This document shows positions 18,059 to 53,900 of a stretch of 64,000 nt of DNA, in pieces. Made by a program: the position numbers and the translations under genes. The notes under the pieces are model-generated. The model ran no database searches. It was not told the DNA's origin and saw only the letters and a list, made by a program, of their open reading frames with translations. Within the stretch, counting starts at the first letter, position 1. Every line of letters starts with the position of its first letter. This DNA comes from a virus (taxonomy: Duplodnaviria > Caudoviricetes), in the IMG/VR virus record IMGVR_UViG_3300010429_001883, positions 64,001-128,000 of that record; one strand, given 5' to 3'.

Positions 18059-18520
18059 ATGGCAATAGTAGAACAAGCAACAAAAATGGCTGCCAAAAAA
18101 GCCCCCAAAATGTTAGGAGGGGGTGTTTCTAAATTATCCATGGCTGGGTATGCTGTAGCTCCTCTCTTTTCTTTGTGGGGGCTACATACTGCATGGACTT
18201 CTCATGAAATGACTTCCATGAAAATTTTAGATGTTGCTGGAACAGCTATAACAGAGCCTTTAACCTATATTCCATTTGTTGGTATACCAATAGCGTTTGG
18301 CGTACAATTGCCTTTTAGTATTGGTGTATCGATATTAGAATCTATAGCTCAAAATGCCGGATCTCAGAATCAATTTAAAACATCTCCAATGGTTTATAAT
18401 AACAAAGTAGCTCAATCCATTTCCAGAGCTACATCAAAGATGGGCGCACTGGCTGGAACTAGCATGTCTTCACAAAACCGTGCATATGGTTTGCACAGAA
18501 AATATGGACTTAGTTTATAA
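18059..18520 (+). CDS. Hypothetical hydrophobic/membrane protein
   Basis: Hydrophobic stretches (IPFVGIPIAFGVQLPFSIGV). Confidence 0.55.
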   Translation: MAIVEQATKMAAKKAPKMLGGGVSKLSMAGYAVAPLFSLWGLHTAWTSHEMTSMKILDVAGTAITEPLTYIPFVGIPIAFGVQLPFSIGVSILESIAQNAGSQNQFKTSPMVYNNKVAQSISRATSKMGALAGTSMSSQNRAYGLHRKYGLSL

Positions 18521-28052: not shown

Positions 28053-28069
28053 TGGAGGGGTGTATAATT

Positions 28070-29353
28070 ATGAACGGCAACTTTAAAGACTACGAGGATT
28101 ATCAGAATCAGTACGCCCAAATGAAGCACATCTGGGCAACCAACGGGTTCGATTTTGATCCCGTTGATAAGCGGCCCCTTCCGAAGCGTCTATCCCTGAA
28201 GGATACTTTGGCATTACCTAATGCCACTTTTTTGATTCCACAGGTATTGACTGAATTTGTCAGAGAGGGCATTGAACCTCTGCTTGTTGGTCCTTCGCTA
28301 CTGCGGAGAATTGATTATAAAGCAGGCATGACAATTAGCTTCCCCGCCATTGGCGGTATGGCTGCTGCTGATTTGGCTCCTGGACAAGAATTTCCGGAAT
28401 ACGGGCCAGACTTGGCCGGCGCTGAACAGACAGAGATCAAGATCTCCAAAAGCGGTCTTGCTCTAAAGTTCCTAGACGATATAATCGAACAGGATAACTT
28501 TGGTCTTATTAGACTCTGGGTTCAGTTGGCTGGTAATGCTTTGGCTCGGCACAAGGAAGTCAAAATTTTCAACTATATCGATGCGTCTGGTGTAACACTT
28601 TACAACAACGCGACAACTCCTGCTACCTATGAAACACCAATGATTGGTAAAACAACCGGTCGTAATGCTGCTGGTGCTTTCAATGGTACTCTAACTCATG
28701 ACGACTTCTTCGAGGCAGTTGCTTTTGGGATGTCTCAGGGTTATGTGTATAATACGGTTCTTATGCACCCATTGACTTGGTCAATGTGGGTTAAGGACCC
28801 ATATATGCGGGCGTTTGCTCTGCAGGCCGGCCGTCCAGATTTCTTCCAAAACTGGACAGGCAACCGCGCAGTAAAGGGCAACAATTGGAATGATCCTATC
28901 CAGGAACTTGGTCCTACCGCTCCTGGTCAGAATGTGACATATGGTTCAGAACTCTCAACCATGCCACAGTGGCTGAACACTGCTCCGCAGTTCCCCAGCT
29001 ACTTCCCATTCCCGATGACAATAATAGTGTCACCGTTTATGCCTATCACTGAAACAACAGATTCCTATGGGAATAAGATGAAGCTAACTGACATCATCCT
29101 ATTTGATCGTAGCAATCTTGGTGCTCTCGTTGTGAAAGACGAGATTCAGACAGCGGAGTGGAAAGAACCTTTCCGCGATGTAACCAAGATGAAGATCTGG
29201 GAATCCTATGCAATCGCTATTTTGAATCAGGGCCAAGGAATTGGCGTACTACGCAATATCCGCGTTGATTCTAATCAGCTGGTGCTACCTGCTCAGACTA
29301 CACTCGATGTTTCTAGCATCCTAGCCACCACTGGTTGGACAGGTTTCGCATAA
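28070..29353 (+). CDS. Major capsid protein
   Basis: LIPQVL..VREGIEP, GQEFPE, KSGLALKF..DII, ALARHKE, LMHPL; distinct codon usage; followed by strong terminator. Confidence 0.85.
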   Translation: MNGNFKDYEDYQNQYAQMKHIWATNGFDFDPVDKRPLPKRLSLKDTLALPNATFLIPQVLTEFVREGIEPLLVGPSLLRRIDYKAGMTISFPAIGGMAAADLAPGQEFPEYGPDLAGAEQTEIKISKSGLALKFLDDIIEQDNFGLIRLWVQLAGNALARHKEVKIFNYIDASGVTLYNNATTPATYETPMIGKTTGRNAAGAFNGTLTHDDFFEAVAFGMSQGYVYNTVLMHPLTWSMWVKDPYMRAFALQAGRPDFFQNWTGNRAVKGNNWNDPIQELGPTAPGQNVTYGSELSTMPQWLNTAPQFPSYFPFPMTIIVSPFMPITETTDSYGNKMKLTDIILFDRSNLGALVVKDEIQTAEWKEPFRDVTKMKIWESYAIAILNQGQGIGVLRNIRVDSNQLVLPAQTTLDVSSILATTGWTGFA

Positions 29354-32668: not shown

Positions 32669-34582
32669 ATGGCTGATTATACTAGATTGCCCGGTGTATA
32701 TGTAAAAATTAATGATGGTGGTCTTCGTGTAACTCCTCCAGTCAGCACCGCTCCACGTGTACTGATTATTGGAACAGCCGGGAAGGGTCCTGCCTATATG
32801 CCAATTGAACCATTGAGCATGGTTAGGGCCAAAACAACTTTTGGAAGCTCTGGCAGCTTACTTCAGAAATATGCTGAGGCTATTGCGGGCGGCGCGGAAA
32901 ACGTAACACTTTTCCGTGTTGGTTCAGAGGCTTCTACAATAACCGGTGTCGGTTATGTAAGTGCTGAAAGTCCTGGTTTGACTGTTACATTTGAAGATCA
33001 TTCTCCTACTATCGGAGATGATTACTATATTGGTTACAGGGCGGGTATACTTGAAGTTTATACTTCTAGAGGTACCACCGTGTATAGTAATGATCCTGAT
33101 GATCCGATAGATCTTCGGGTAGTTAGTATTAGTGGCACCAACACAAATGCTGGATCAGATATTTTAACTTCTGGCACAACGGTAGATTTCGATCATGCCG
33201 TGTTAGTTGATGATTTATCTGTATCCGATGTTACCTTTACATTAGGTGACGATGGCGTTGATATTAGTAATAGACGTTTGTTTGAAGTATGTTATACTGC
33301 ATTTGCCTTACTGGATGGCTATGATTCAGATATTGTTGTCATAGCTGGTGCTTATGCAGATAACCCAAACGTAGCTTACTATGAAACTTCTGTTACTGGA
33401 TCTGTTACCTCTGTGGTAGAAAATTATCCAGTAGGAGATACTAGTGTGTTGGGTTGGTTTAGAGCCGATTCTAACATTAACTCTAGCGAACTTTATGACT
33501 ATTATTGGTCTGAAGAAGTTTGGACAGACGCTGGAGCCATGGCTGTTAGTGCCCTAGATGCTACCTATCTAGCTAACTATGCCGCTGATCCCGATACTTA
33601 TCCTATCACGTTTGCTTCTGCTGCGGATAGAATTGCTAAGGGTTTCAGAGAAGTTAGCTTTGCCTATTTGTTAGCAAATTATTGCTATCAGATGACTAAA
33701 AATAACAATGAAATGATTGGCGTAATTGCCATTCGTGGACCTCGTGATACAAGTGGCAGATCTTCTGCTAAGCTGTATGATGTTAATCGGTGGGTCGGTG
33801 TAATGCCGACTTACAATGATGCTGGCGTTGTCACCAATGACGGCAGCGGCTTGCTTGCCTTCCCACTAACAATGGGTTGTTCTGCTTCTAGACTTAATAA
33901 TCTAGTGCTTGGACAAACAGAAGGCCGCATTCCTGGCATCTTTGCTACCGATGATGAATACATCGATGGTACTGTTCTGTATGACGATAACAACTTTAAA
34001 ATTGATATCGGTGCATATATTAGTATCGTTGGTGAGCATCCAATGATTGTAATTGGTAATTATCCGTATGTTGGACCTATTGATGGTCTTTATGCTGGTA
34101 TGATCTCTCTGTTGGACCCGAAAGATGCTCCAACATTTAAGCCTCTTGGCAGTGTCAAGAAGCGCTGGAGATTAAGCAAAGCCAAGCACGATGAGCTTAT
34201 CCAAGCTAAGATTGTGTTGATGGACGATGTTCCGATTAAGGGGTATGCGATTGTTGATGCCATGACGGCTGCTACAGACGATTCTGATTTCCGTAGACTA
34301 ACAACAGTTCGTATTCTTCACTTAGTTAGCCAGCGTATGCGGGCAGTGACAATTCCTTTTATTGGTACTGCTGCGCTGATTACTCCGAAGAAAATTGCTT
34401 TGGCTACAGCGATTGAAGGTGAATATGCCAAACTAGCCAAACGTGGATATCTATCGGATTATCAGTTTGAAATTGAAATTAGCAAGTATGACCAGGTTAA
34501 TGGTAACGTTAAAATTTACCACACCTTCATACCCGCTTTGGAAACTCGTAGAATTACCCATACCTACCAGTTTACGATCTAA
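32669..34582 (+). CDS. Tail sheath protein
   Basis: LPGVYVKIND, VLIIGTA.KGP, DFRRLTTVRI, FIPALETRRI. Confidence 0.88.
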   Translation: MADYTRLPGVYVKINDGGLRVTPPVSTAPRVLIIGTAGKGPAYMPIEPLSMVRAKTTFGSSGSLLQKYAEAIAGGAENVTLFRVGSEASTITGVGYVSAESPGLTVTFEDHSPTIGDDYYIGYRAGILEVYTSRGTTVYSNDPDDPIDLRVVSISGTNTNAGSDILTSGTTVDFDHAVLVDDLSVSDVTFTLGDDGVDISNRRLFEVCYTAFALLDGYDSDIVVIAGAYADNPNVAYYETSVTGSVTSVVENYPVGDTSVLGWFRADSNINSSELYDYYWSEEVWTDAGAMAVSALDATYLANYAADPDTYPITFASAADRIAKGFREVSFAYLLANYCYQMTKNNNEMIGVIAIRGPRDTSGRSSAKLYDVNRWVGVMPTYNDAGVVTNDGSGLLAFPLTMGCSASRLNNLVLGQTEGRIPGIFATDDEYIDGTVLYDDNNFKIDIGAYISIVGEHPMIVIGNYPYVGPIDGLYAGMISLLDPKDAPTFKPLGSVKKRWRLSKAKHDELIQAKIVLMDDVPIKGYAIVDAMTAATDDSDFRRLTTVRILHLVSQRMRAVTIPFIGTAALITPKKIALATAIEGEYAKLAKRGYLSDYQFEIEISKYDQVNGNVKIYHTFIPALETRRITHTYQFTI

Positions 34583-38399: not shown

Positions 38400-38971
38400 T
38401 AAAAAAGAAGTTATATAGAATGGTTGTTGAAAATAAACTTGATATTGACTTTACACAACCAACATTAAAAACACTAGATCGAGCTAAGACCGATATAGAA
38501 TGGTTACCTTTTCCTATGCGGCACTATCTGTCAGCGCTAGATGTTTTTAGAACCAGTGTGGTAGGTGGCGAAGAAAAAATTAGACAAATGGCGGCAGGCA
38601 CTATCCTTAGCATTGGAATGATAATATTATCATTTTCTGGGTTATTCGCTGATAAAGATAAAATGGACTCTGACTTTAAAAGGGCTAAAGAAAACTGTGG
38701 AAATTACTTTAATCATATACGTAATTTAGCTGCTATTCATTTTGGTTACAAATTTGAAGAGTCTGCCGAATGGGACTACGATAAATTAATAGAGATTGCT
38801 GCAAGGCTAAGTCTTGTCACTTCTCAAGATTTATCTATTAGCAAATTAACTGAAACTAAGAAACCCAGTGCGACAATAAACGCTAACGAGGTTACAATAA
38901 CAAAGGGAGCAGCAATCCCAGAACAAGTAGTTGATTTTCATAATACTAAAACATTTACTAAAGAAAATTAA
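38396..38971 (+). CDS. Hypothetical protein (tail assembly chaperone position)
   Basis: Position between tube genes and giant genes. Confidence 0.45.
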   Translation: MIKKKLYRMVVENKLDIDFTQPTLKTLDRAKTDIEWLPFPMRHYLSALDVFRTSVVGGEEKIRQMAAGTILSIGMIILSFSGLFADKDKMDSDFKRAKENCGNYFNHIRNLAAIHFGYKFEESAEWDYDKLIEIAARLSLVTSQDLSISKLTETKKPSATINANEVTITKGAAIPEQVVDFHNTKTFTKEN

Positions 38972-41900
38972 TGGCAAAATCCTCGGTTAATGACATTTTT
39001 GTAGATATATTCTTAGACTTGGAAGCAAGTTTTGATCCTACGTCTGAACAATCCTATCAAAATTTAAAACAATTAAATAAAAGAATTCTTAATTCGAGGG
39101 CTACTAAACGAAGCCACCGCGGCATTGTTTCTTCCCAACACAGAGCAGCGCATGTTATTGATTTAGCGTATTCAACATTTAATTCTAACAAGAAGATAAG
39201 TAAGCCGTTAACAAGTTTTATTAAAGAAAGACAGCTTGCTGCCGATCCTAAAAAATTTGTAGGCGATTTCTGGAAAACCACAGAAGAACCAAGAAAACTT
39301 TTGGAAGAGTTGCGGTCATTTGCATCTGGTAAAACAACAGCAACAAAATTTATACAACCCATAGATGCATTAACTGAGTTTTTAGAGCATGTTGATGAGC
39401 AAGCCAAGTTAGCAGCCAAGGTTGGCAAGAAAGTAAGAATCAGTGGGTGGTCATTACAGTATGATCTATCTGTACTAATAGGCAATATTGAGGGAATACT
39501 TTCTTCTGGAAAGAGAAAAGATCCGGCAATTGCTGCTAAACTGCATAAACTATCTTCTGTATATAATCAATTTGTTGATCATATTCAACGAAAAACAATT
39601 ACTACCCACAGCCTAGAAACTGGGTTTTTGAAATACCGCGCCGCCCTGGTTGCTAAGGCATATGAAAAGTATGGTCAATCATTTATTTCCAACACTAAAC
39701 TTAATGAAAGCGCCGTCAAGCATATATCGAATGTTATAAGGAAAGGGGATGCTGCTGCTTTTGATGAATTAATAAGTGGTCGAACGGCTAAATTTGGTGG
39801 ATATAGGGTAGAAGATGTTTTAAGGTTTTTAGATATTTATGGTGGAAAAGAAAAACACCGCGCAGCAATGGATGTTTTACAAGAAACAGACATTGCTTTA
39901 AGGTTTAGAGATTTTAATCCATTTGTAGACGATCCTTTTGAATATGCTAAAAAGGTTGGTGGTAAGTCTGTTACTGCTATAACTGATCAGCAGGTTTTTT
40001 ATAAACGAGCCATAAAAGAAATTATAGTGCCAGATAGGATGGGACGAGCGGTGGCTGGGGAAGCGGCGGCTGCGGTTGGGTCAGCCTCTTCACAAATAGT
40101 TAAAGGCCAAAGTTCAATTATATCAAGACTTGCTCTAGGTAAAATTTCTTCCAACAAAGCAATAAAGATAGCTGGCATTGGTGCTCTTGCTGTTGTTGGT
40201 TTAGGTGTTGTGCAGAGACTTTGGGATAGTGCTGGCGACGATGATTATTCTAATAAGCATGAAGCTCTAATAGGAAGTTCACATAAAAAGTTTGGTATTT
40301 TTGGTTCTGGTTACCGCGGAGGTAGGAGTGACTATCTAGATCGAAAGATAGAAGAGGCACGCTCTCGTGGATCGATGTTTGTTGGTGCTAGCTATGTTGG
40401 ATTGCCAACAAGAGAGATTAGACAGAAATTAGTTTCTAATATAGTTGCAAATAGCCCATATGGTGGGGCTGGTGGTTTTGGCGGAAGAAAGAAAAATACA
40501 ACATATTCAGAAACGGCCGCTGGTTTTGGTACTTTTGCTCACCAAATAGCTCAACGTGAAATGATGGATACCGGCAGTTACACCGGTAAAACTTTGACGT
40601 GGCGACAAAATTTTGCAGATGCGATAATAGGTCGGGATAGAGGAAAGGGAATTACTCCCGAATATAAGGCTGTTAGCCAAGAAACCGGCATGTATGGCAG
40701 TATAGACGTACTGCAAAATGAAGTTATTATTGAACATAAGTTTGTTACAGCTGGAATTTTTGAGACAATTGTTAGAACTGGAAAACCATTCCCGTCCCAT
40801 GTGCTCCAGATAAATGCATATATGGGTATGCTTGGTAAACGAAAAGCACAACTAATATACACTAACAGAGAAAATCTTCAACAGAGAATAGTTTTTGATG
40901 TTGATTTTGGTGAAAAAGCATATAAGCAAACTGCTAGAAAAGTAAGAAAAGCCTCTAGGCAGGCAATGCGTGATGCATTAGAAATGGGAGTTGATGTTTC
41001 TAGTTTGCCTGTTAATGAGGACATTACTGGACAAGAAACACAAATACCTTCAATGGAAGAACTGAAAGAAAGGTATCCTGTTGAACTCTTCCATGCGTTA
41101 ACAGTTAGACGCGGTATTCCAACTAATCTTGAAAAATTAAGAGAAGATCGGGACTTAGAACAACAACGTGTTCGTGCTAGGAAAGGTAATATAATTGAGG
41201 GCATGAGACACGGGTGGTTTGGCAGTTCTAGAAAAGATAGAACAGACTTCGGTTCTGGTTTTAGACCAGAAGATGAATATGGTACTCCTGATAACGTATG
41301 GACATCCAGGGCGGTAGCTGTAGCTGCTGTTGGTGGTTTTGCCTATGGGATGGCAAAACACCCGGTTTGGCTTTATAATAAAATTAAGAAACTTGAAGAT
41401 AGAAGTCCTTTACAAATACTTAAAACTTTTCGTTTATCTGAAAGACTTCAGCCTCGTGTTATCAGTGCTCTTGATAGCAAAGGTAAACAAGTAATCCCAG
41501 CATCTGCTTTATTAATACGTGGCGGTTCTGCGATGCGCGGCCGATCTTATGCGTACGCAGATACCTCTCTAACAAAACTAGGGATGTTGGTGCAAAATTT
41601 ACTTGGCGAATTACCAATTGATGAGAAAGGTAATTTAGTTTTTACAAAGGCGGAAGGAAATTTTTATAAAATAGCTGTAGGGGGGCAAGAGAAATTTGTC
41701 ACCTTTGCGTCAGCAAATACTAGGCTAGCCTCTGCGGCGTTTAGATATAATAAGCGAACAGGAGAGAAAGCTCTTTCTGATTTTGAAGTAGCAGCTACCA
41801 AAAGAATGTCAAATATGCCAGAATGGTTTAAAGCTTTTGCTGGCATGCATAACGCTAAGAAAACTAAGACAGAAGAGTTAATTTATAAAGCTGGATTACA

Positions 41901-44900
41901 AATCCAAAAATTAAAATTATCTCAGATAGAACAAAAATTAACGGGTGTTGCTGATGATGCCGTTGCACCAATATATGCTACAACTAAAAGTACGCCAATT
42001 TTAAGAACAGCAGATATATTTTTACAAAAATCTAGGCGCGCAGCTCTTGGAGGACTTGAAAGATTTAATAGATTGATTGCTGAGTTTGGAGTGGCGTTGC
42101 CGGCTGGTTCTTTTAATAGGGTTTTAACGGTTCCATGGAACGACGTAGTAGCTCGTACCCCTGTGGGTAAAAAACTTGGGATGCAGGTTGGTAGGCGCGG
42201 TTTTATAAATCAATTATTAGCTAAAAGGTATTTCCCCATAGCAGCAATTGCTGCGACTGCCGGGCTTTTGGATTATGTTACTGGACATACAGTATCAGAT
42301 ATGCCTGTAGAAACATATGCTAATACACAAATAGGCATGTCTACTGTTGCTCGTATGACTGGACTGAATAAATATAAAGAACTTATAAATACAATTTCTC
42401 CTGTTCCAGATTATGGGATTGCTCTAGCAACACTATCTACAGCAGCGATAGGTTCTCAAATATATGCTAATAGGCTTGCAGCTTCTAATAATATTGCTCC
42501 TGCTTTGTCGCGCCTAGGAGTTACTCAACAATTTTCTACATATGAAAAATTTTCCACCCGTGCTGGACAGGCTCTTGCCAGTGAATCCTATACGCCTGCT
42601 TATCAAACACTGAAGAAAAAGTTGTTAACAAAAAGCCTAAAGGGTGCGGCTTTACTTGCAGCTCCTTTTATTGCCAGTGCTCTTATACCAGAAGAATCTC
42701 CTCAGGAATTAAGAGATATTTATAGTGGCCGACAAGAAATTGAAGTCATGAAAGGGCGATGGTGGGAAACATCTTCTACTCCATATGAAGGCGATAAGAC
42801 TAAAGAATTTCGTCAGCATTTCGTTGCTAGGTTCTTAAATAGGCAATGGATAAAAGATGAATATGGCTCTGAAGGTGAATATTGGAAAAGAAATTTGGGC
42901 ACCCCAATTGGGTGGTTTAATTTACTAACCGATCCATATGGCAAAGAAGTAGAAGCTGCGAAAAGAGGACGTAACTTTCCTTTAACAGAAGAACTATTTT
43001 TAGATGTACCTTTTTCTGATATAACCGGCTTAAGATTTATTGGGCATGCGTTAAAGCCACCAAAATTTATGCATGCTCGAAGTGTTGAAGATTTTGCTAG
43101 GATGTATGAATCAGAGAACCCAGACTTAGAGCCATCCTATGAGCTTGGAGGACTGAAGCCACTGGTTCCTCAAATGCCGTGGAGCTTAAGGAATATGGCT
43201 GCCAGAACTTTTTCTCAATATACAACAGTAGCAGGGTTACCTGGTTTTATAGGAACAACTACGTCCAAAAAATTGTTAGGCGAAGAAAATGTTTTTATTG
43301 ATAAGTATACCCCAACGCTACAGGCAGCCAATGAGATAGGTAATCAAGAACGTTGGTTTTATGGATTAGAATTGGGCGGCGCTGCCTTTTTGTCTGAGCC
43401 TGTTCGTAGGTACATTCAACGAACACCGCGACAATTTGGTGCTCCCTATAACCCAATACCAAATGATTTGCCCGACTGGTTATCTGGAAAAAATGAGTTA
43501 AAAGATTTAGCAACGGGCGATGCTATAGCAAAAGTTGGATTCAACGCTAGATATTTGCCTCCTAGGGGGGAAGGCGAGGAGTACAACGAACTACAAAAGG
43601 CAGAAGCCTTAGCACATGTGCAGCCCTATAGTAGAAGATTAACTAGGATGTTTTCTGCATTAGATGAAGTCGCTCTTGAGCCTATGGCTAGATACCGAGT
43701 TGAGGAACTGAAGCAACAAGTAAAAGCAATAAAAGAAAGAGAAAAATTTTCTGAAAACACGTTTGCAACGCCGTTGGCTGGATATAGTGGGACTGTTGAG
43801 CAAGTTGAGGGCGAATATTTAAAACTAAAAGAATACCCTTTTAAGGAATTTAAAGTAGGGGGATTTGCTTTAAATTATTATCAGACGGCAAAGAATTTTA
43901 TTAGAACTGAAAATATTTCTATACAAAGGGCCGCCATGCGTGCCGCTGAAGTTCAAGAAAAAGCTAGAGAGCATATTGAGAAACAGCTTACACCGGGAAC
44001 TAGAATTGGCTTTGCTGCAGCCGCCGGTGCGCCAGAAAATTTACGTCAAGTTGATATAGCTGTATATACATCTAATGGCCTTTTAAATAGAGAAGTAAAA
44101 GATAAGTATAATTTACCAATAGAGCAAAATAAAGCCATAAGCCAACTTATGTATTCTGCCCCCACTAGGGCAATGGGAACAGTGGCTGAATCTATATTTC
44201 ATGACCCGGCTCTTCCAACAATGGCAAAATTTGCTGGTAAATATACAGCACTAGAAAAATATAAAAAAGAAAGGGTCTATGGAAAGAAAATAAAACTTTG
44301 GGATAACCCAATAGAAAGTTTTATTATGCAACCTGCTTATGGTGCCTCACGTCGATTTGGGTCTGTTGTACCCTTTAATCCTTTTTCTGGATTTGATGAT
44401 GAATATAATAGCATAGAGGGTTTGAAGGGGAATGTTCACCAGCAATTTGGAGTATTCGGTAGCGGATTTATAAATAAACTTGGCAATATAATGGAAACAA
44501 CCTTATCAAAGATATTGTTTTCTGGTAAGGGGATGTCTCCGCTTGTAAGTAGTGAAAAATATTTATTAATTGATGCCGATAAAACATTATTTGGAGGTTT
44601 TCTTGACACGGCATTTAACGCTGTTAACAGAGTAAGCCCTAGCATAGCCAGAGATTTATATGCTTCTAGCACAGCTCGATTTATTTCTTCTAGAATTCCT
44701 GTAACAAAACAAGGAAAAAATGTTTTATCTATGGCTGAAAGAGCCAAAAGTTTTGGTTTTAAACCAATACTTTTTACCGACAGGCCGATAGAACACGCCA
44801 GCTCTACAATAGGGGCACTGAAGCGCTCCGTAGGGGATAAGCGGATTGAAAATTTATTCGAAGGAAGGTATTATTTTGGTGCTGGCAAAAAGCAGTCTTC

Positions 44901-45987
44901 TGTTTTACCAGAATCTTTTTTAATAGATGACAGAATTACAGAGTATGGTAGTTTAGTTAAAGGAGGGCTACACCCAGGAAGTGAAGGTATTGCAACAGCA
45001 TTCATTAGACAAACTACTCCCTTTGGTTCTGGTTTTGCTTCATCAGATCGATATGTGCCTGTTCCTGGATACACTGAAAACATCAGAAAGTATAATGAAT
45101 ATTTTGATAAATTAGAATACATAAAATGGATAAAACTTGCAAAACAGGCAGAGGAAAAAGGACACGATAGGCTAATATCTTACTATATGGCGAAAGCTAG
45201 GGGCACGATGATTGGTATAAACCCCCTAATAGCAGAACCAGAACAAGTTATGCAGGTTTTACCAAAATCTGAGCGTCCTTATTTTGCTGCATTCGCTAAT
45301 GAGCCCAATCCCGAGAAGCGACAGGAAATTATGGAAATGCTTCCTGCATCTCAAAGAAGACTAATGGCTGGGACTTGGTTTAGGCAAATGAATCATGCGT
45401 CTATGTTGGAGGAAGAAATTCCACAGTATCGGGAGTATGTTCGTAATGAAGGATATATGACAGATGCTGAAAAACAAGTTATTCCTGGGCTTGCTAAGGT
45501 ATATGGTGGAGCAGTTGAGCCTGCTGCTCTTGATCGTATGGCAGAAATTTATCAGTTTTTAGATGAAAATAATCTTCCACTTCCGAGTGAAAATTGGAAA
45601 GGGTGGCAAGCACAAATTGATATGCAAGATCTGAAACTTATGTATTTAAAAAGCATAGGTGAAGATATCCATGAATATGATCTGTGGGAAGACCGTGAAA
45701 GAATGCTTGCTAGAAAACCATACTTGAAAAACACGCTGGGTGCTTTACGAAACAACTTTAATCCGTCTGGTACCATTAGTGTCATGGATGGGATATTAAA
45801 AGACAATGGAGTATTAGCTAATAGGTATTCTTCTACACCTACAACTGAGACTAGTTTTACTCTTAACTTTGGTGTTGATCCTGATACTATGTTATATGAT
45901 ACTGATTTTAATAGAGCAATAGATGATTCAATGAGAAAGACACGGCCAGGCTTTGATAATCTAGACCTTTATCTTGGGAGAATGTAG
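38971..45987 (+). CDS. 2338-aa modular virion/ejection-type protein with DEDDh exonuclease, PD-(D/E)XK nuclease and HAD phosphatase modules
   Basis: FLDLE/GWSLQYD/HRAAMD; GTFAH..E..GSIDV..IIEHK..QINAY; LIDADKT/FTDR/GKK/LIDDR; several Gly/Ala hydrophobic helices; tape-measure locus position. Confidence 0.7.
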   Translation: MAKSSVNDIFVDIFLDLEASFDPTSEQSYQNLKQLNKRILNSRATKRSHRGIVSSQHRAAHVIDLAYSTFNSNKKISKPLTSFIKERQLAADPKKFVGDFWKTTEEPRKLLEELRSFASGKTTATKFIQPIDALTEFLEHVDEQAKLAAKVGKKVRISGWSLQYDLSVLIGNIEGILSSGKRKDPAIAAKLHKLSSVYNQFVDHIQRKTITTHSLETGFLKYRAALVAKAYEKYGQSFISNTKLNESAVKHISNVIRKGDAAAFDELISGRTAKFGGYRVEDVLRFLDIYGGKEKHRAAMDVLQETDIALRFRDFNPFVDDPFEYAKKVGGKSVTAITDQQVFYKRAIKEIIVPDRMGRAVAGEAAAAVGSASSQIVKGQSSIISRLALGKISSNKAIKIAGIGALAVVGLGVVQRLWDSAGDDDYSNKHEALIGSSHKKFGIFGSGYRGGRSDYLDRKIEEARSRGSMFVGASYVGLPTREIRQKLVSNIVANSPYGGAGGFGGRKKNTTYSETAAGFGTFAHQIAQREMMDTGSYTGKTLTWRQNFADAIIGRDRGKGITPEYKAVSQETGMYGSIDVLQNEVIIEHKFVTAGIFETIVRTGKPFPSHVLQINAYMGMLGKRKAQLIYTNRENLQQRIVFDVDFGEKAYKQTARKVRKASRQAMRDALEMGVDVSSLPVNEDITGQETQIPSMEELKERYPVELFHALTVRRGIPTNLEKLREDRDLEQQRVRARKGNIIEGMRHGWFGSSRKDRTDFGSGFRPEDEYGTPDNVWTSRAVAVAAVGGFAYGMAKHPVWLYNKIKKLEDRSPLQILKTFRLSERLQPRVISALDSKGKQVIPASALLIRGGSAMRGRSYAYADTSLTKLGMLVQNLLGELPIDEKGNLVFTKAEGNFYKIAVGGQEKFVTFASANTRLASAAFRYNKRTGEKALSDFEVAATKRMSNMPEWFKAFAGMHNAKKTKTEELIYKAGLQIQKLKLSQIEQKLTGVADDAVAPIYATTKSTPILRTADIFLQKSRRAALGGLERFNRLIAEFGVALPAGSFNRVLTVPWNDVVARTPVGKKLGMQVGRRGFINQLLAKRYFPIAAIAATAGLLDYVTGHTVSDMPVETYANTQIGMSTVARMTGLNKYKELINTISPVPDYGIALATLSTAAIGSQIYANRLAASNNIAPALSRLGVTQQFSTYEKFSTRAGQALASESYTPAYQTLKKKLLTKSLKGAALLAAPFIASALIPEESPQELRDIYSGRQEIEVMKGRWWETSSTPYEGDKTKEFRQHFVARFLNRQWIKDEYGSEGEYWKRNLGTPIGWFNLLTDPYGKEVEAAKRGRNFPLTEELFLDVPFSDITGLRFIGHALKPPKFMHARSVEDFARMYESENPDLEPSYELGGLKPLVPQMPWSLRNMAARTFSQYTTVAGLPGFIGTTTSKKLLGEENVFIDKYTPTLQAANEIGNQERWFYGLELGGAAFLSEPVRRYIQRTPRQFGAPYNPIPNDLPDWLSGKNELKDLATGDAIAKVGFNARYLPPRGEGEEYNELQKAEALAHVQPYSRRLTRMFSALDEVALEPMARYRVEELKQQVKAIKEREKFSENTFATPLAGYSGTVEQVEGEYLKLKEYPFKEFKVGGFALNYYQTAKNFIRTENISIQRAAMRAAEVQEKAREHIEKQLTPGTRIGFAAAAGAPENLRQVDIAVYTSNGLLNREVKDKYNLPIEQNKAISQLMYSAPTRAMGTVAESIFHDPALPTMAKFAGKYTALEKYKKERVYGKKIKLWDNPIESFIMQPAYGASRRFGSVVPFNPFSGFDDEYNSIEGLKGNVHQQFGVFGSGFINKLGNIMETTLSKILFSGKGMSPLVSSEKYLLIDADKTLFGGFLDTAFNAVNRVSPSIARDLYASSTARFISSRIPVTKQGKNVLSMAERAKSFGFKPILFTDRPIEHASSTIGALKRSVGDKRIENLFEGRYYFGAGKKQSSVLPESFLIDDRITEYGSLVKGGLHPGSEGIATAFIRQTTPFGSGFASSDRYVPVPGYTENIRKYNEYFDKLEYIKWIKLAKQAEEKGHDRLISYYMAKARGTMIGINPLIAEPEQVMQVLPKSERPYFAAFANEPNPEKRQEIMEMLPASQRRLMAGTWFRQMNHASMLEEEIPQYREYVRNEGYMTDAEKQVIPGLAKVYGGAVEPAALDRMAEIYQFLDENNLPLPSENWKGWQAQIDMQDLKLMYLKSIGEDIHEYDLWEDRERMLARKPYLKNTLGALRNNFNPSGTISVMDGILKDNGVLANRYSSTPTTETSFTLNFGVDPDTMLYDTDFNRAIDDSMRKTRPGFDNLDLYLGRM

Positions 45988-48900
45988 TGCCAGATTCAAA
46001 TGAAAAATTAAGAGTTAATGACAGCCGCTCTATTAGTAGCTTTTTAGGTATTGCCGGCGTTGGCGCCGCAGTATTTGCTGGTGGTTGGCATTTATTAAAT
46101 AATGCTGGATTGCGGGAAGCTATGTCTGGTGGTGTTAAGGGTGTTACAAATGTCGATATGAGGGCTGCTGCTGCTAAGGGGATTTTAAGACAAAGACAGG
46201 AAGATTTTATTAGACCTGGGTTTGAGGCGGCATTTGAGGCCAACCAGAAAAAGTTCGCTGAGTTTGGTTCAAAAGAAACTTTGCATAGGGTTAATAAAGC
46301 ACTTGATACTGCGCTTAATCCAAAATCTAGTAGAATAGATTACATCTTGAAAAGAAACAAACAAAAGCTTGATAAGGCTCGGGAAGATTTAGCCAGAGCA
46401 ACAACACCAAGAGATAAAGAAAGATTACTGCAACGTGTAGCTGGGAAAGAAAGAATAGAAAAACACTTTATGTCTAAGGCTAAACAGCTTGTTGTTGACG
46501 CTAACGATTCGCTTAATAAAACATTAAAGCCTTACCTGGCTGGTACAGATCTTGGATCATTAAAGAATACTAAAGAAACATTCTTGGCTGTATATAAATC
46601 CTTAGCTAAAACTAATCCCTCAGAGGCGGCGAAGCTATATAACACCGTTAGTATGATGTCAGAAATGGCTGCCAGCGGAAAAACAATCTCAGCAAATTCA
46701 AGAATTGGTAGTAAATTTAAGAAAAGGGGACTAACGGCTGTTTCTAAATCCAGAAGACTTGGATTTTTAGAAGCCGGCGGATATTTAGAAGGTTTATCTA
46801 AGAAACAAGTAAAAGCATTATCTTCCTCGGCAGGTTTCCGTGTATACAGCAGACAAACTGCTGGTGGAGAGATGGCTTTTGTTTCATTTGGAACTAGTAA
46901 TCGGATATGGTCTTTAGGTGAGGCAGGATCTAAGTCCATCTCTTCTGTCTATGAACACGTTGGATCTGGTGGTGGAATTCTTTCTGGGATGCTGGTTAAG
47001 AAAGCTGGTGGTCAGTTTGAAGAGGTTAAAGGGTCTACTTATGTTCTTTCTAAAATAGCAGAAACTGCTGAAATGGCCGGCAAGGCAATATCAAAAGAAG
47101 ATGAAGAAATTTTATCTGCCTTGTATGCACATAGAACGTCTAATACGGCCGCACTTTGGCAGGCCCATGGAACTAATTCTCCACTGCGGGGTTTTGCGAC
47201 AAATAGGGCACTAGTTGAAGAAATGGTTTTGGATCGTGGTTTTATGCATAATACCGAGGCTGTTTCTGAGTTAAGCTCTAAATTAGCTAATCAAGGGTAT
47301 GTTCCTGCAGCCGGCGGTAGTGCAATAGAAACAGTTTATAAAATGTTTGGTTTTGATGAAAAAGGACAGAAGATAGCTACCGGGCTTGGAGCTGAAACAT
47401 ATAAATTTAATGTATGGGATGAGGCCTCTGGATGGTTGCCCAAAGAAATGAAAATGGCAGACTGGTTAATGCAACATCACGGTAAATTTAAAGATCAGTT
47501 TGAATTGTACAGAGCACACATGAAAATGGATTATTTGGTTAGTTCTGCTGAAGAGGGAGATAAATTTTTTCAACCGCTTTCAAAGACACAGGCTAAATTA
47601 AGAGTGAACGCTGGGGTTCTAAGTAATAAACAGTTTCAAGATTTTAGAGAACTTAGTGCTCTCGCTCAAGAACTTAAAGGCAATGTTAAAAGTTTTAAAG
47701 AAACAGATATTTTAGATGCTTTAACAGGGGGTAAAGTTTCTCAAAAGTTACTTAAAAATTTAGGCATAAGTGAAGGTTCTGTTATAGATAGAACTAAAGC
47801 AGCTGCCATAGCCAAACAATTCGCAAAAATGGGACAAGTGGGAGTAGAGGATTTACATTATATAGCTAACATTGGTGCTGGACAGGCCCTAGGCTCTAAA
47901 GAGTTTATGCAAAGAATTAATTCTATTGAGTTTGCTTCTGTTTTTGATGTTGATGACTTCTCTAGTGATATTGTGGAAAAAATTAACAGAGCGAAACCAG
48001 GAGAAACAATAGAAATTAAAAATCTAAAGCCAGGACAAATATTAGGTAGAAAGGATAATAGAAGTATACGGTTAGCAAAAGATGGCACGAGAAAATATCG
48101 TGCTGAAATTATGAAAACTGAAAAGGGATATAAAGTGATTGCATATGGGCAACATGCTCATAGAGAATATATGAGTAAAACAGCTAGATCATTTACTGGT
48201 GCAGGTGAAAATTTAGATAGACGTCTTGTGGTAATGGGAGACCTTAGAGGGGGCCTAAGCCACGCTAAAGAACTTATGTCTACTATTGGTGGAAAAAAAT
48301 ATCAAGATACTATGGAAGCTGTTACGGCACTTTTGTCCGGTGGGAAAAGTTTAGATTTATTATATGGAGAAGATATATTAAGCAACGCTCCAAGCTATGT
48401 TAAAACCATGGCAGTTAAGTCTATGGAGCAAACCAAGAAAACAGGTAAATATGTTCCTTTAATGATACAAAGTTATTTTAGCTTGTGGGCAGCAGGGGCT
48501 GCGCATATAGGGTCAAAAGCGAAGGGAGATATCTTACATGCTCAAATGATGCGGAACATGGGGCTTGATTTCATGATTCCTAAATATTTTGCTAAGATGA
48601 CTAGTTTAAATAAGGAAGGATTACAGCTGGCATTGAAAATGACAGAGGCATATCAAACAGGTACGGACGCTGTTGGTGATTTAATAAAAACACAAGTATC
48701 AAATGTAAATGAGTTAAGAGAGGTGCTTGGTAAAGGAATAGCTTCAGAAGAATATGCTGGTGGGTTTAAGTATAAATCAAGAAAAGGACTTATTGACGAA
48801 GTTAGAAAAATGTACGGAGATACTGATCCAAAAATCTCTAAATTGTTAGATAGTATTAAGGATCAGGAATATTATTATATGCCTGGAGCCAGATCCGGCC

Positions 48901-50936
48901 TTCAAGAGAAAATTGCTGCTGCGGCTAAAGAGGGCGCTGCGTCACAACGGCCGCTTTATTCTACTAAGCTAGAGCAGAAAATTATGGATGTGGCAAGAGC
49001 AGAAGAATCTTTACAGTTAAGTTTAGAAAAAGGAGACGCGGCGGGAGTTAGGTCGTCTCTTGTTAAATTAAAGAAAGCACAAAGAGAATACGCCACAACT
49101 CCAGGAATTGGTTTAACTGGTAAAAGGTCTATACTTCGTGATTTGGGTCCAACAGAGGGCGGCACGAGGTTTACAATTCATTCAAATATAACTGCCAAGC
49201 AATTCGAAAGCGTAGCCGAAGTTGGTGAAGTTGGTTTAATTGACCTTGGTTTTAATCAGGAGGAGATAGCAAAAATAAAAACTGCTGCCAAGAAGGCTGG
49301 CGGAGTAACGGATGTATCTGGTGTTTTGTATGGTACCAGATGGCCGATAACTTCTGGTGGTTTTTATAAATTGAAATTTAATCAAGATATAATGGATAAA
49401 ACAATTCGTACCACAACCCTTATGGACCAGTTATCTATGATTGATAGAGATAAAGACGCTATGGATGCTGTATTTTTTAGAGGTAAGGGATTGGCTGGTG
49501 CCGAACTAACGCAGGAACAGATTAAGACAATATTTGAAAGACAAAAGCAATTACTTAAAACTGCTGAGCCACTGATGTTTCAGTTTAAGTCTGCGTTTGA
49601 CTACACAAAGAGCGATGTAAAGGGGATGCCATCTTATTTTAATTCAGCTGGATTTGCTGACCTTTTAAAAGACCAAGGAATAACTGATTTTAAAGACGTA
49701 AATAAATGGAAAGAAGTTGGAACAATACAAAAACAATATGATGATATGCTGTCCTCTATTACTGGCGGTAAGGCCGACAAGCAGCTAATGGAAGAATTTA
49801 CACAATTTGAAACAGATTATGGCCACATGTTTTATAAAAATAAAGATAAAGCTATGAGGAGGCTAAGATCTGCCGAAGCATTTTCGCATATGAAACTTTT
49901 TGAACAAACGTTTGTTCGCAAAATAGGTGGCAAGGGGATTATTCCACAAACAACGAATATGACTAGATTAATGGATGTTTTGGCTCAACGTGGCGGAATA
50001 ACTGAAATGGGGGATAAAGCACGAACACAGATTCAACTGTTGGGTGAGGCTCTTTTCCAATTTCCAATTCACTCTCTTAAGCACGCCGACTCGGCGTCGA
50101 TGTTAAACTTTGCTCAGATGACAGATAGAGCTATGCAAGAACTTAAGAAAGGAAATGTTGATAAATATTTTGAAGAATTGGGTTCTTCCTCGTTTTTTAG
50201 AGAAAAATTAATAAAACCCGATTTATTAAAGAGAAAGGATTTGACCAAAGCCAAAGTAGATGCTATAATGAAAGACGAAGAACTATATAGGAAGGCATCT
50301 AAAGATTACTTTAATAAATATTATTCTGAATTGTCAACAGCTTTGAAAACCGCCGCCGGAGCAGGACCAGAGGAATTTAATGAAATTGTTCGTGGCGTCG
50401 AGGGCTTTTATTCTAAGACAGGGAATTTGGGGTATATGAATAAACGCATGGCAGCTATGGCTGCCCATACGCTTGTTCCAGAGGAAATTATATCAAAGGC
50501 AGGTATGGCGAAAAAAGATGTTGCTTTAGATGTAGCTAAAACAACATTAAAGAAGCATCCTGCTGTTGCTATTAGTGTTGGAGGAGGGGTGGCCGCTTTA
50601 GCTCTTATAGGGATGTTACAGTCTCCTAGTGATACTTCTCCATTAATTTCTCCAACTGCTGCTGATAAAGAAGCCATGAGTAAGAAAAGGCCAACATCCC
50701 CAGCAGATGCTTTGGGGATGCCAAGAGAACCAAGTTTTTTAGATAATTTGAAAAGAGCCACCGGCGGTCGATTTGCTTCCGAAGGAACAGTATCTTATGA
50801 TACAAACGGCGAACAGCTTGGCAAACAAATACAGCAAAAATTAGGATCAAATGATGTTAAAGTTAACATTATGAATCCCTATGATAGTAGAACATCTATA
50901 CGGACAAGACGCAGAATAAGCGGAGAACAACAATGA
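45987..50936 (+). CDS. Putative single-chain two-barrel (beta/beta-prime-like) RNA polymerase, likely virion-associated
   Basis: TRWP (49338) to DRDKD (49443-49457) with Arg-to-first-Asp spacing of 35 aa as in beta-prime R425/D460; LTGKRSILRDLG..TRFTI switch-2-like; GVEDLHYI and LKPGQILG beta-like segments. Confidence 0.65.
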   Translation: MPDSNEKLRVNDSRSISSFLGIAGVGAAVFAGGWHLLNNAGLREAMSGGVKGVTNVDMRAAAAKGILRQRQEDFIRPGFEAAFEANQKKFAEFGSKETLHRVNKALDTALNPKSSRIDYILKRNKQKLDKAREDLARATTPRDKERLLQRVAGKERIEKHFMSKAKQLVVDANDSLNKTLKPYLAGTDLGSLKNTKETFLAVYKSLAKTNPSEAAKLYNTVSMMSEMAASGKTISANSRIGSKFKKRGLTAVSKSRRLGFLEAGGYLEGLSKKQVKALSSSAGFRVYSRQTAGGEMAFVSFGTSNRIWSLGEAGSKSISSVYEHVGSGGGILSGMLVKKAGGQFEEVKGSTYVLSKIAETAEMAGKAISKEDEEILSALYAHRTSNTAALWQAHGTNSPLRGFATNRALVEEMVLDRGFMHNTEAVSELSSKLANQGYVPAAGGSAIETVYKMFGFDEKGQKIATGLGAETYKFNVWDEASGWLPKEMKMADWLMQHHGKFKDQFELYRAHMKMDYLVSSAEEGDKFFQPLSKTQAKLRVNAGVLSNKQFQDFRELSALAQELKGNVKSFKETDILDALTGGKVSQKLLKNLGISEGSVIDRTKAAAIAKQFAKMGQVGVEDLHYIANIGAGQALGSKEFMQRINSIEFASVFDVDDFSSDIVEKINRAKPGETIEIKNLKPGQILGRKDNRSIRLAKDGTRKYRAEIMKTEKGYKVIAYGQHAHREYMSKTARSFTGAGENLDRRLVVMGDLRGGLSHAKELMSTIGGKKYQDTMEAVTALLSGGKSLDLLYGEDILSNAPSYVKTMAVKSMEQTKKTGKYVPLMIQSYFSLWAAGAAHIGSKAKGDILHAQMMRNMGLDFMIPKYFAKMTSLNKEGLQLALKMTEAYQTGTDAVGDLIKTQVSNVNELREVLGKGIASEEYAGGFKYKSRKGLIDEVRKMYGDTDPKISKLLDSIKDQEYYYMPGARSGLQEKIAAAAKEGAASQRPLYSTKLEQKIMDVARAEESLQLSLEKGDAAGVRSSLVKLKKAQREYATTPGIGLTGKRSILRDLGPTEGGTRFTIHSNITAKQFESVAEVGEVGLIDLGFNQEEIAKIKTAAKKAGGVTDVSGVLYGTRWPITSGGFYKLKFNQDIMDKTIRTTTLMDQLSMIDRDKDAMDAVFFRGKGLAGAELTQEQIKTIFERQKQLLKTAEPLMFQFKSAFDYTKSDVKGMPSYFNSAGFADLLKDQGITDFKDVNKWKEVGTIQKQYDDMLSSITGGKADKQLMEEFTQFETDYGHMFYKNKDKAMRRLRSAEAFSHMKLFEQTFVRKIGGKGIIPQTTNMTRLMDVLAQRGGITEMGDKARTQIQLLGEALFQFPIHSLKHADSASMLNFAQMTDRAMQELKKGNVDKYFEELGSSSFFREKLIKPDLLKRKDLTKAKVDAIMKDEELYRKASKDYFNKYYSELSTALKTAAGAGPEEFNEIVRGVEGFYSKTGNLGYMNKRMAAMAAHTLVPEEIISKAGMAKKDVALDVAKTTLKKHPAVAISVGGGVAALALIGMLQSPSDTSPLISPTAADKEAMSKKRPTSPADALGMPREPSFLDNLKRATGGRFASEGTVSYDTNGEQLGKQIQQKLGSNDVKVNIMNPYDSRTSIRTRRRISGEQQ

Positions 50937-53900
50937 AGGATAATGACGTATTAGCATTTAAATCTTTAGACCATCCAGCTCAGTCGGAGTTTACAATTGG
51001 TTACATTAAATTAGAAGTACCTCCCTCTGATATACATGTCACTAAAAGTACCAATTCTATGTTTTTGGGGGCTTTAAGAAGTCCTGCTGATACGCCATTT
51101 AAAACCGGATATTCAAATTGGGATATAACAGTTCGTATGCAGTTTTATGGTGAAGAAGAAATTGCTTCCAAGCTTCTTCCAATTGTTGGGATGTGTAAAG
51201 TTGCTCCCATTGTAAATGTAAATAATTTGACAATAAAAGAGCAGCTTTTTGGGCATTTGGCAGGAACTTTAGGTGCTTCTACTGCTGTGGATGATTTAGA
51301 CTTTTTAGGAACTCTTAATTACTATTATTCAAAAGATAACACTATTTCTGTTATTATTGAAGGAATGTCAATAAATGTTATGTCTCAATATGGCGGGCTG
51401 TGTCTAGATGTTAATTTATATTTGAAATATTATAATCACCATGCAGTCAGTCCTTATTTTAGAATTAATGAAGAAAAACTCAAGGGAAGAGTTGACAGAT
51501 GGATACAACAAGCTAAATTAAATTATGATACGCACGTTAATGCTATAAAAAATTTTAAAGTTAATTTAAATTCTGATAATGAATTTATGGTGGTTGGTAG
51601 ATATTTTCATGCTATCTCTACTGGTGGTGTATCCTTTGGAACTCTTATAGAGCTTTTAAAATCAATGGCTGTGCCAGAAAAAGATAGAGCAGATGCAATT
51701 AATGATATATTAGAGAAAGATAAATATAAGAGAGATCTCTATAATAAAAAAATGGAAGAGCTGGAAAAAACGTTACAAGAAGCACAAGCTAAGGAACGTG
51801 CCAGCCAACAAACTAAACCTGATCCCCAAAAAGAGGGAGCAAGCAGTAAAATAAAATTAGGGTGGCCTTTAAAACAACATACAATTGTACATGATTGGGG
51901 AGAATCTGGACATACGATTACCAGATCTAATCCAACAGGAGTCCATGAGGGAGTTGATTTGAGGGCTGCACAAAGAACACCGGTATTCGCAGCTGAATCA
52001 GGAAAGGTTGTAACGGCTTCTGAAGATACTCAGTATAGTGGTGGTTTAGTTGTTATATCTCATGAAGGTGGAATTACAACACACTATGCACACTTAAGTC
52101 AAGTGTGGGTCAGAGTTGGTATGAAGGTGGAAAAGGGACAGCAAATAGGAGAATCTGGGGGTACGCCAGGAACAAAGGGCGCGGGTTCTTCGAGTGGACC
52201 GCACCTACATTTTGCTGTTAAGGAAAAAGGCAAGCCAGTTGACCCAAAATTATATTTAGATTTAAATGATAATTATAAAAACATTCGTCCAATAGCAGCC
52301 GGAGCACAGACGCCTGAAATAAATATTGGTAAAACGCCGTATCAAGAAATAAGAGATTCAGAGCAGCTAAGGGCAGCAGCCGAAGATATAAAAAATAAGT
52401 TAGAAGACGGATGGACAGTTGATATAATGAAAACGGACGAAAACTACATAGTCTTTTTTAAAGAATTTGGTATTCCGTTTTTTAAAGATTTCAATATTTC
52501 TAGTTATATGGATTATGATATACAGGGGTTTAAACTTGTTGATACAAGAGCAAGAATAATTCTTAACAGTATAGGCATATCATTAAAAAATAAATTTGTT
52601 CCTATTCCTATTGCCGGGTACCCAATGCCGTTTTATCAGCATTTGGGCGGATGTAATGTTTCTGTTGGTGTGGGGGGCTTGGCACTAGTTGATGAGAAGA
52701 CTGGAACATGTACTCCGCTATCTAATTTACAGGCCTTATATAACTTGAAAGAAGTTCAATTCTTAGCTTTGCGTGGTAAAATTGATTACACGCCTGGTTC
52801 TAATTATGATATACAAGGAGTAAGAATACTTAATAAACCGCTGGGTCTTCTTGGTCTTGTTAATTTTGTTATCTCTGATTTGGCTGTTGGTACAGTACCT
52901 GACACGCCGAACGCTATGAATGTTAATTTAAACATGTTTGAGAACTATGTCTATGATAATACAATTTATAATGATTCAGGTAATATTAGTATTTTTCAGG
53001 ACTATATTTTACCAGATTTAATAGTTGATGAACTTAAAAAATTAGGCCCAATAGAGGCAAAGAACCTTGGGCCGGAAACATTTAAGCTATACTTACAAAT
53101 ACAAGTTTGGGACAAGTTTGAAAGAGATAATCCCAACTATATGAAGAATATAAATAACGATGCCAAATTGGTTGAAGCCACTAAGAAAACTATAGAAGGT
53201 TGGGCCAACGTAGAAAAACTAAACAGCCTTTTGCCTGCTGGTGGTTTAGAGGATTATCAGAAATTAATGGGTGGGAGTTTTTTACACGGATCGATTGTCC
53301 AGACGCTTGTGTGGATGACTTCTATGGGCGTTCCAGGTACAGGGACTGTCGCAGCAGGACCAATTCCATCTTTACCGTTGCTTTTTGCTAAGCCAGTTAC
53401 AGAAATAATTGATGTATACTTTATGCCATCTATTAAGCAAGCAAGCTGGATGGAGCATGCACAAACAAGGCGAGAGTATATTCAAGATTTTTACACAAAA
53501 AATTGTGATAAAGATCCATTTTTGATCTGGATAAGGGATAAAATCAATCGTGGCGAGTATACGCACGAACTCAAGAATAGATTTAATTTTGATATGGATG
53601 CATTGACAAGGACGTGTTATCCAGATCTTTTATTACAGAGGGGAGAAGACCCTGGTGCATATATAGATTCTGGGCTAGAACCAGACCCAGAACAGATGAG
53701 TCAATTATGTGCAGAATCGGTTGTCGTTTCTAACGCCGCCATTCAAAATATAAAAGAACATTATTCTGGTTTACTTCGGTATAAAACAGTAGAATTAAGT
53801 TATGCGGAGGGGGCAGAAGACAAGGGTCAGGGTGTTTTAAATAAACCAGAGACAGAGCCTTTGAAGCATTCTAGTTCAGACGGCCCATATGAAACCAATG

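Follow-up and report, generated by a model that had tools for sequence, protein, structure and literature searches.

In polymorphic toxins, a short motif (VENN in CdiA, DPxGL in Rhs proteins, or PT-TG) lies at the junction of a constant carrier and an interchangeable effector. There is a single variable domain at the C-terminus, an immunity gene comes next, and the variable domain is exchanged from orphan cassettes. Short consensus sites are also found in the head proteins of phages T4 and phiKZ, which are trimmed by a prohead protease at three to four residues (L/I-x-E in T4 and S/A/G-x-E in phiKZ). The “polyvalent proteins” are chains from phages and conjugative elements that join unrelated enzyme domains and are encoded among virion genes; it is proposed that they enter the host with the DNA, that their domains are shuffled, and that they are processed before or after injection (PMC5512222). 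In another case, gp96 of Thermus phage P23-45 joins a virion RNA polymerase to the tape measure (PMC10770324). Here, we describe P0001, a giant protein encoded in a 64,000-nucleotide stretch of phage DNA (the window, which is bases 64001-128000 of the IMG/VR virus record IMGVR_UViG_3300010429_001883, 148 kb long and an estimated 78% complete). It carries four copies of a conserved motif ending in Phe-Gly-Ser-Gly (FGSG), and this motif very probably serves as a punctuation mark between the domain-sized, shuffled enzyme cassettes of a modular effector system.

As a multi-enzyme (“polyvalent”) protein, P0001 has a probable exonuclease, a nuclease, and a probable HAD phosphatase on a conserved scaffold. 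Its gene (38971-45987), known from the open reading frame (ORF) list and translation, encodes 2338 amino acids, and it and all the features of P0001 given below are on the plus strand. A sequence-only reading of the window had placed four FGSG[YF] sites in one giant protein. All four are where it put them, in frame in this ORF, with FGSG starting at residues 444, 760, 1829, and 2018 (nucleotides 40300, 41248, 44455, and 45022) and followed by Y, F, F, and F. Such sites could come from a chance or low-complexity Gly-rich repeat, or they could be the terminal strands of the adjacent enzyme folds, and the motif is indeed Gly-rich. However, the protein's own composition predicts 0.048 FGSG strings rather than four (Poisson P(>=4) = 2e-7), and at most two are seen in any of 5000 shuffles of P0001. 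The terminal-strand version also has to contend with the fact that the same motif flanks unrelated PD-(D/E)XK, SNase, kinase, and DEDD exonuclease domains and lies outside the confident nuclease fold described below, so the probability of either version is negligible. No FGSG occurs in the other coding frames of the window, and a search of the six-frame translation of the whole 148-kb record with a hidden Markov model (HMM) of the motif gave no copies beyond the four in P0001.

When all FGSG[FYWL] sites are collected from the proteins that share the P0001 scaffold, a long pattern is seen to be common to them, FSG[KR]DDxYNTIEGLxHGWFGxxRxxxTDFGS[GP][FYW]. The sequence-only reading had described two alternating motif types. 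The order of a left type A and a right type B stands within the P0001 clade, but the aligned sequences indicate that the two are variants of one linear motif of ~35-40 residues. The canonical form is that of type B at 41197-41262; in the deletion variant, type A, four residues (HGWF) are missing and H replaces R at position -6. Type A is found only in the clade of P0001, P0004, P0005, and P0008, where it is the left copy and type B the right copy of each cassette. In P0001, copy 1 (type A; 40225-40326, residues 419-452, FGSGY at 444-448) has an independent HMM E-value of 8e-11 and copy 2 (canonical type B; 41164-41277, residues 732-769, FGSGF at 760-764) one of 9e-19. For copy 3 (type A; 44377-44475, residues 1803-1835, FGSGF at 1829-1833), the value is 1.5e-13, and for copy 4 (44965-45048, residues 1999-2026), it is 1.4e-6. 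Copy 4 is a divergent type B, GLHPG...FGSGF, and its subtype also precedes the C-terminal domain in P0008 and is degenerate in P0004 (GVGSGF). Scans of the motif alone against Pfam, NCBIfam, and PHROG gave no match, and a literature search for motif strings turned up no phage paper. Kinship with the N-terminal EG...T.G.G of the T4-type lysozymes was considered and rejected, as D20 is unconserved, the remaining fold is absent, and there is no profile match.

The first pair of motifs encloses cassette 1 (40327-41163, residues 453-731), which had been called a PD-(D/E)XK nuclease, and the predicted fold bears this out. Scans of P0001, whole and in pieces, against Pfam, NCBIfam, and PHROG gave only phrog_1706, which matches here (E 1.7e-12). 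In an AlphaFold2 (AF2) model of residues 395-800, built on a nine-sequence alignment, the core of the cassette has a predicted local distance difference test (pLDDT) score of 75-92. Foldseek matches it to LHK-Exo (3syy; E 6e-8, template modeling score 0.67), as well as to lambda exonuclease (1avq), RecE, Cas4, and MGME1. D579, E588-x-K590, and Q613xxxY617 do not vary among P0001, P0004, and P0005; in the more distant nine-sequence cassette alignment, either D or E is found at position 588, and D579, K590, Q613, and Y617 hold throughout. By its modeled fold and its catalytic residues, cassette 1 is confirmed as a PD-(D/E)XK nuclease of the lambda-exonuclease/RecE/Cas4 type. A Cas4 proper with a four-Cys Fe-S cluster was rejected because the cassette has no cysteine (Cys). 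Both motifs have a low pLDDT in the same model, 32-43 for copy 1 and 29-41 for copy 2 (29-43 for the pair); copy 1 stops five residues short of the confident fold, and copy 2 starts where the fold ends. The motifs are therefore predicted to coincide with the domain boundaries and to lie outside the fold, in flexible linkers. No confident contact is seen in the model between the flanking motifs, or between either motif and the domain, so the idea of the motif pair as a clasp around the nuclease is unsupported.

The second pair encloses cassette 2 (44476-44964, residues 1836-1998), a probable HAD-superfamily phosphatase that resembles the class B acid phosphatases and the 5'-deoxynucleotidase of T5. 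The HAD signatures that the sequence-only reading had listed hold up: LLIDADKT (the DxDxT motif, residues 1868-1872), ILFT, GAGKK, and LIDD are all kept in P0004, where the cassette is 53% identical. The family assignment comes from these motifs and from ESM-Atlas look-alikes (DUF2608/Acid_phosphat_B, Phage_T5_dNMPase, and HAD_PNKP; score 0.93, 172 shared features), which together make a HAD phosphatase probable. Pfam, PDB sequence, and word-based homologue searches with the cassette, the last for a stand-alone relative, gave no match, and the pLDDT of an AF2 model from a two-sequence alignment is only 43.

The N-terminal domain (38998-39900, residues ~10-310) is a probable DEDDh-type 3'-5' exonuclease, as judged from its conserved residues and its relatives. 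D16 and E18 (Exo I) and H296 and D301 (Exo III) are invariant in P0001, P0004, P0005, and P0024, and members of the family have exonuclease matches at the same place (a weak RNase_H_2 in P0024, DNA_pol_A_exo1 at E 7e-28 in P0009, and RNase_T at E 2e-25 in P0174). Pfam and PDB sequence searches with the P0001 domain itself found nothing meaningful. Between this domain and motif copy 1, directly before the motif, a Kyte-Doolittle scan finds a hydrophobic, transmembrane-like helix (40159-40215, residues 397-415). The conserved scaffold (41356-44355, residues 796-1795, from BLAST block maps) lies between the two cassettes and is common to a very large family of giant phage proteins, and the conserved C-terminal domain of that family (45049-45984, residues 2027-2338) comes after copy 4. 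An exhaustive phmmer search with residues 1139-2338 gave at least 1183 cluster representatives at E<=1e-3, 285 of them at E<=1e-30, and the best 150 of the 1183 were examined further.

Within this family, the two sites that hold the cassettes of P0001, slots 1 and 2, are filled differently from protein to protein. In P0024 and P0027, slot 1 has a staphylococcal-type nuclease domain (SNase, PF00565, residues 578-694) instead of the PD-(D/E)XK nuclease, with motifs at ~440-490 and 750-800. The layout is otherwise that of P0001: exonuclease, hydrophobic helix, motif, domain, motif, and scaffold. In slot 2, P0004 (67% identical to P0001) has a HAD-like domain, and P0005 (36% identity), which is 273 residues shorter, has a single degenerate motif, QFG-AMGDSK-GSGL. 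The slot in P0008 (44%) is more elaborate, with a type A copy, an unrelated insert of ~480 residues, a canonical copy, 30 residues, and then a GLHPG-type copy; for the insert, only a weak tape-measure-like feature look-alike (0.85) was found. P0006, P0067, and other distant members have slot 2 closed and no motif there, scaffold residue ~1800 being joined directly to ~2030. The junction residues in these relatives without cassette 2 are 1477/1476 in P0006 and 1350/1349 in P0067.

Other members of the family have a single motif or none. Those of ~1640 residues have one motif, which opens the scaffold after a hydrophobic helix at residues 350-400, and BLAST blocks align residues 740-770 of P0001 (copy 2) with the single motif of P0016, P0067, P0076, P0096, P0108, and P0126. 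Some other scaffold proteins have degenerate FGSP[WY]xGP forms. P0007 carries a related PD-(D/E)XK domain at another site without motifs, and P0009 has the exonuclease fused straight onto the scaffold with no motif, so the motif is not obligatory for fusion. The scaffold family is also interrupted by LAGLIDADG inteins, in P0006 (residues 547-934), P0009, P0077, P0080, and P0090. The intein of P0006 lies between KGRWWE and SSGYEG, which corresponds to residues ~1266-1268 of P0001 (between WWE and TSSTPYEG).

The motif is also found far beyond the scaffold. The profile search that had been proposed along with the sequence-only reading was done with 15 motif copies against longer proteins, up to 2000 residues, and it gave 92 proteins, 91 of them new, with scores of up to 162 bits. 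The new proteins carry one to six copies (two in 41, three in 27, four in 13, five in two, and six in one), and only ~10 of the proteins found with the profile have the P0001 scaffold. Altogether, 274 motif copies in 112 proteins are above the HMM threshold. The Pfam domains of the proteins found in this way include protein kinases (Pkinase, ABC1, RIO1, and APH), SNase, RNase_T, a PolB-type exonuclease, DUF2441, and DUF4406, and every enzyme domain for which coordinates were obtained sits between motifs. The gaps between motifs (n=162) have a median of 233 residues and an interquartile range of 176-295, with 13 of less than 30 residues (tandem copies). The 144 inter-motif segments of at least 60 residues form 45 BLAST clusters, with free variation in their order and neighbours. 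For example, segment cluster 0 is bordered by nine different neighbours on the left and seven on the right, and the nuclease cassette of P0001 recurs between motifs in the otherwise unrelated P0159, P0166, P0171, P0175, and P0216. The swappable domains in a conserved scaffold that the sequence-only reading had envisaged are thus supported, since the contents of the slots differ among homologues and the segments are combinatorially shuffled across the 112 proteins; enzyme content varies, and the motifs are conserved at the domain boundaries.

A related-locus search with a six-copy alignment of the canonical motif added 44 further copies in 17 IMG/VR loci. In L009-L024, the motif proteins stand alone, 1.5-2.5 kb ahead of the large terminase gene and directly after a Cys-rich packaging-block protein of ~260 residues (MTCP...CPFA...GGGHCEYA). 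The window has a homologue of the Cys-rich protein (16308-17039, plus strand; hmmsearch E 9e-29), which is located before the terminase and has no adjoining motif protein. This protein was considered as a partner of the motif and rejected, as it belongs to the packaging block and its homologue in the window is far from P0001. In L010, the gene for the Cys-rich protein carries an intein. Several stand-alone motif proteins (P0169, P0180, P0188, P0201, and P0225) end 45-48 residues past the last motif in a conserved basic tail, ...W[TS]xHH[IQ]G, and this tail may be a second signal.

Could the motifs be nothing more than recombination scars or homology arms, with a functionless peptide, as the sequence-only reading had allowed? 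Slot 2 of P0005 could be a deletion product, its left half being type A and its right half GSGL. The order of type A on the left and type B on the right at both cassettes of the P0001 clade is what a duplicated bracket would give, and a 13-nucleotide string, TTTGGTTCTGGTT, is common to three of the copies. However, F-G-S is invariant in an alignment of 45 copies (the four of P0001 and 41 more, from proteins down to ~25% identity), and at least 70% of them retain most of IEGL, H, a basic residue at -6, and T-D. The copies within P0001 also differ synonymously, three of them encoding the invariant serine with TCT and one with AGC. The invariance of F-G-S across distant proteins, combined with the synonymous differences, therefore indicates that selection acts on the peptide and not on the DNA, and the motif appears to be under purifying selection. 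In addition, members with a single copy retain the motif without a cassette, where a scar would be expected to decay. A functionless scar is, for these reasons, disfavoured and quite improbable.

How the cassettes might be delivered is suggested by an unusual composition. P0001, P0002, P0004, P0005, P0008, P0024, and P0159, which are 1650-2500 residues long, have no cysteine at all, compared to 0.94% in the other ORFs of the window (P = 3e-10 for P0001). The same is true of 81 of the 91 motif-profile matches and 101 of the 149 scaffold proteins, and it is suspected that some of the Cys-containing members owe their cysteines to inteins. P0003, the hub/lysin protein with an M23 peptidase, has nine. 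Cysteine tends to be avoided in proteins that pass unfolded through narrow secretion channels and in those that traverse the periplasm. Because the chains are almost entirely Cys-free and encoded in virion gene blocks, we infer that they are virion-borne and exit in extended form by way of the tail channel.

The location of the gene is that of a tail gene. The window has a head block with the large terminase (18520-20493), portal (23370-25067), and major capsid protein (28052-29353), and then the tail sheath (32669-34582, from PHROG and Pfam), tube-like proteins, and several small ORFs. Three giant genes come next and are translationally coupled; the gene for P0001 leads them, and the others encode P0002 (1649 residues; 45987-50936, plus strand) and P0003 (1970 residues; 50933-56845, plus strand, with the M23 peptidase at residues 337-438). 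On their 3' side is Baseplate_J (58448-59662, from PHROG and Pfam). The genes have the same order in four metagenomic relatives (L002, L004, L006, and L007) and in the Bacillus jumbo phage vB_BceM_WH1, in which the sheath gp102 and the tail chaperonins gp098/gp097 are followed by gp096/gp095/gp094. These three are annotated by the depositor as “virion structural proteins”, and gp096 matches residues 1449-1788 of P0001. P0001 is at the tape-measure position of a contractile-tail phage, as shown by the gene order shared with the relatives and the chaperonin annotations of WH1. No chaperone match was found in the two window ORFs upstream of P0001, where the chaperone assignment is by position, and the tape-measure family profiles of Pfam and PHROG gave no match to P0001.

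A few other features of the region can be added. The string MIDRDKDAMD in P0002 is DxDxD-like. In the third giant protein, an M23 peptidase is found in this phage and a Glyco_hydro_108 domain in the phage of P0008 (L006, 22682-27488), so the wall-degrading domain of the hub also appears to have been exchanged. At the left edge of the window (1-2880, plus strand) is a five-domain glycosyltransferase/methyltransferase protein (GT17, Methyltransf_24, GT2) that continues past the edge. A gene for a ClpP-family protease (3361-3963, plus strand; PF00574, 57.8 bits) lies amid glycosyltransferase genes, distant from the head block, and the gene for the large subunit of ribonucleotide reductase (9619-13500, plus strand) is split by an intein with a LAGLIDADG domain.

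The role of the motif itself can be explained in more than one way. In the explanation we put first, the chains would be carried in the virion and would exit through the tail channel in an extended state, and the motif would be recognised in trans as a proteolytic processing site. Cutting at or beside the invariant F-G-S would then leave a membrane-anchored scaffold and set the enzymes free. In this phage, the freed set would comprise an exonuclease, an endonuclease or 5'-3' exonuclease, and a nucleotidase, which could act as a kit for the demolition of host DNA. An exonuclease, a lambda-Exo-like nuclease, and a nucleotidase-like phosphatase could in principle both degrade the host DNA and dispose of the nucleotides. 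Phage T5 does both of these with its pre-early gene products. The motifs are of low confidence in the model and lie outside the fold, as is usual for a linear motif that another protein recognises. That the motif is a proteolytic processing site at or next to F-G-S is, on the sequences compared here, a credible proposal, one that we hold tentatively. A more specific version, for which our confidence is lower still, is a portable “effector cassette signal”. In this case, a domain of ~20-30 kDa between two motif copies would be loaded into the virion or tail lumen as an unfolded, Cys-free bead and would be freed in the host by cleavage between the G and S of F-G-S, either autocatalytically or by a phage protease.

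Several observations weigh against cleavage. An S78/S77 prohead protease was not found in the record, which is 78% complete, and no protease could be tied to the motif, the only candidate being the ClpP-like gene at 3361-3963, which could not be linked to it. The conserved span of ~35 residues is long for a simple protease site. None of the proteins in the set ends right after FGSG (the shortest tail is 45 residues), so gene fission does not mark the motif as a site, and P0009 and similar scaffold members join exonuclease to scaffold with no motif to cut. There are also the 13 inter-motif gaps of less than 30 residues and the P0070-like scaffolds, in which a transmembrane helix and one motif are present and there is no cassette to free. 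Tandem copies and single motifs without a cassette are explained by a binding or anchoring unit no less readily than by a cleavage site.

This brings in a rival with the same modular architecture, in which the motif stays uncleaved and is a docking, loading, or hinge element that keeps the domain beads spaced for packaging or ejection. The motif might bind some shared component of the virion, for instance the tube lumen, a chaperone, or the capsid core, or it might be seated on the membrane surface beside the hydrophobic helices. The tandem copies with nothing between them, in P0077, P0170, P0179, L020, and others, are in keeping with such an element, as are the minimal scaffolds with their single motif and the conservation over ~35 residues with several polar invariants. 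Of 259 motif copies, 59 (23%) have a transmembrane-like helix 28-75 residues upstream of FGSG, compared to 2% at random positions, and the cassettes have a uniform size of ~20-32 kDa, perhaps because of a size limit set by the lumen. On the other hand, no partner has been identified. Of the 154 scaffold-family proteins sampled, just 21 have the motif, so the scaffold does not require it for its own assembly, and it is also found in the stand-alone proteins, whose genes lie near that of the terminase and not in the tail block. An uncleaved docking or hinge element is a possibility to be taken seriously, though we would not expect it to be the answer.

Phages are known to inject a small number of proteins along with their DNA, and polyvalent multi-enzyme proteins are predicted to be among them; the motif bears on the organisation, loading, and dismantling of such chains. 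The motif offers a sequence handle for finding injected effectors in metagenomic phages and for testing their processing or loading by mutation of a single residue. The locus also suggests that the phage brings with it a ready-made set of enzymes for the degradation of host DNA. If it is a cassette signal, the result would be plug-and-play injection of multiple enzymes, analogous to the polymorphic toxins, and if the signal is portable, chosen enzymes might be loaded into phage particles.

How does P0001 compare with the systems introduced at the start? Polymorphic toxins differ in having one C-terminal variable domain, whereas a protein here can hold as many as six internal cassettes, and the carriers are phage virion proteins. 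Also unlike the toxins, P0001 is not followed by a small, immunity-like ORF; the next gene encodes the 1649-residue P0002. P0001 is like viral polyproteins and the head proteins of T4 and phiKZ in that a repeated consensus lies between the functional units of one translation product, but its motif is roughly ten times longer than the T4 and phiKZ maturation sites, and its cleavage is only proposed. Like P23-45 gp96, P0001 places a catalytic domain on a giant protein at the tape-measure position, from which it is presumably delivered by the tail; gp96 differs in belonging to a long, non-contractile tail and in having one N-terminal polymerase (PMC10770324). A term search of the available portion of that paper gives no cassette-bounding motif in its account of gp96.

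The likeness to the polyvalent proteins is broader. P0001 is like them in having at least two disparate activities, and further domains in its relatives are SNase, protein kinase, RNase_T, and PolB-exo. It is also like them in its setting, since it is encoded in a virus record by a gene between the sheath/tube and baseplate genes (PMC5512222). A difference is that processing there is attributed to zincin-like MPTase domains within the chain, which are common but not required, whereas P0001 is without a Pfam peptidase match (PMC5512222). A term search of the same portion of that paper gives no punctuating motif, SNase, tape measure, transmembrane, or linker, and “repeat” is found twice. Set against the polyvalent proteins as described there, the present ones have a conserved motif of ~35 residues that marks the cassette boundaries, and many of them are fused to a scaffold of the tail block. 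What seems to be new is the combination in polyvalent virion proteins of a family-wide motif at the cassette boundaries, apparently unrecognised until now, with a near-total lack of cysteine.

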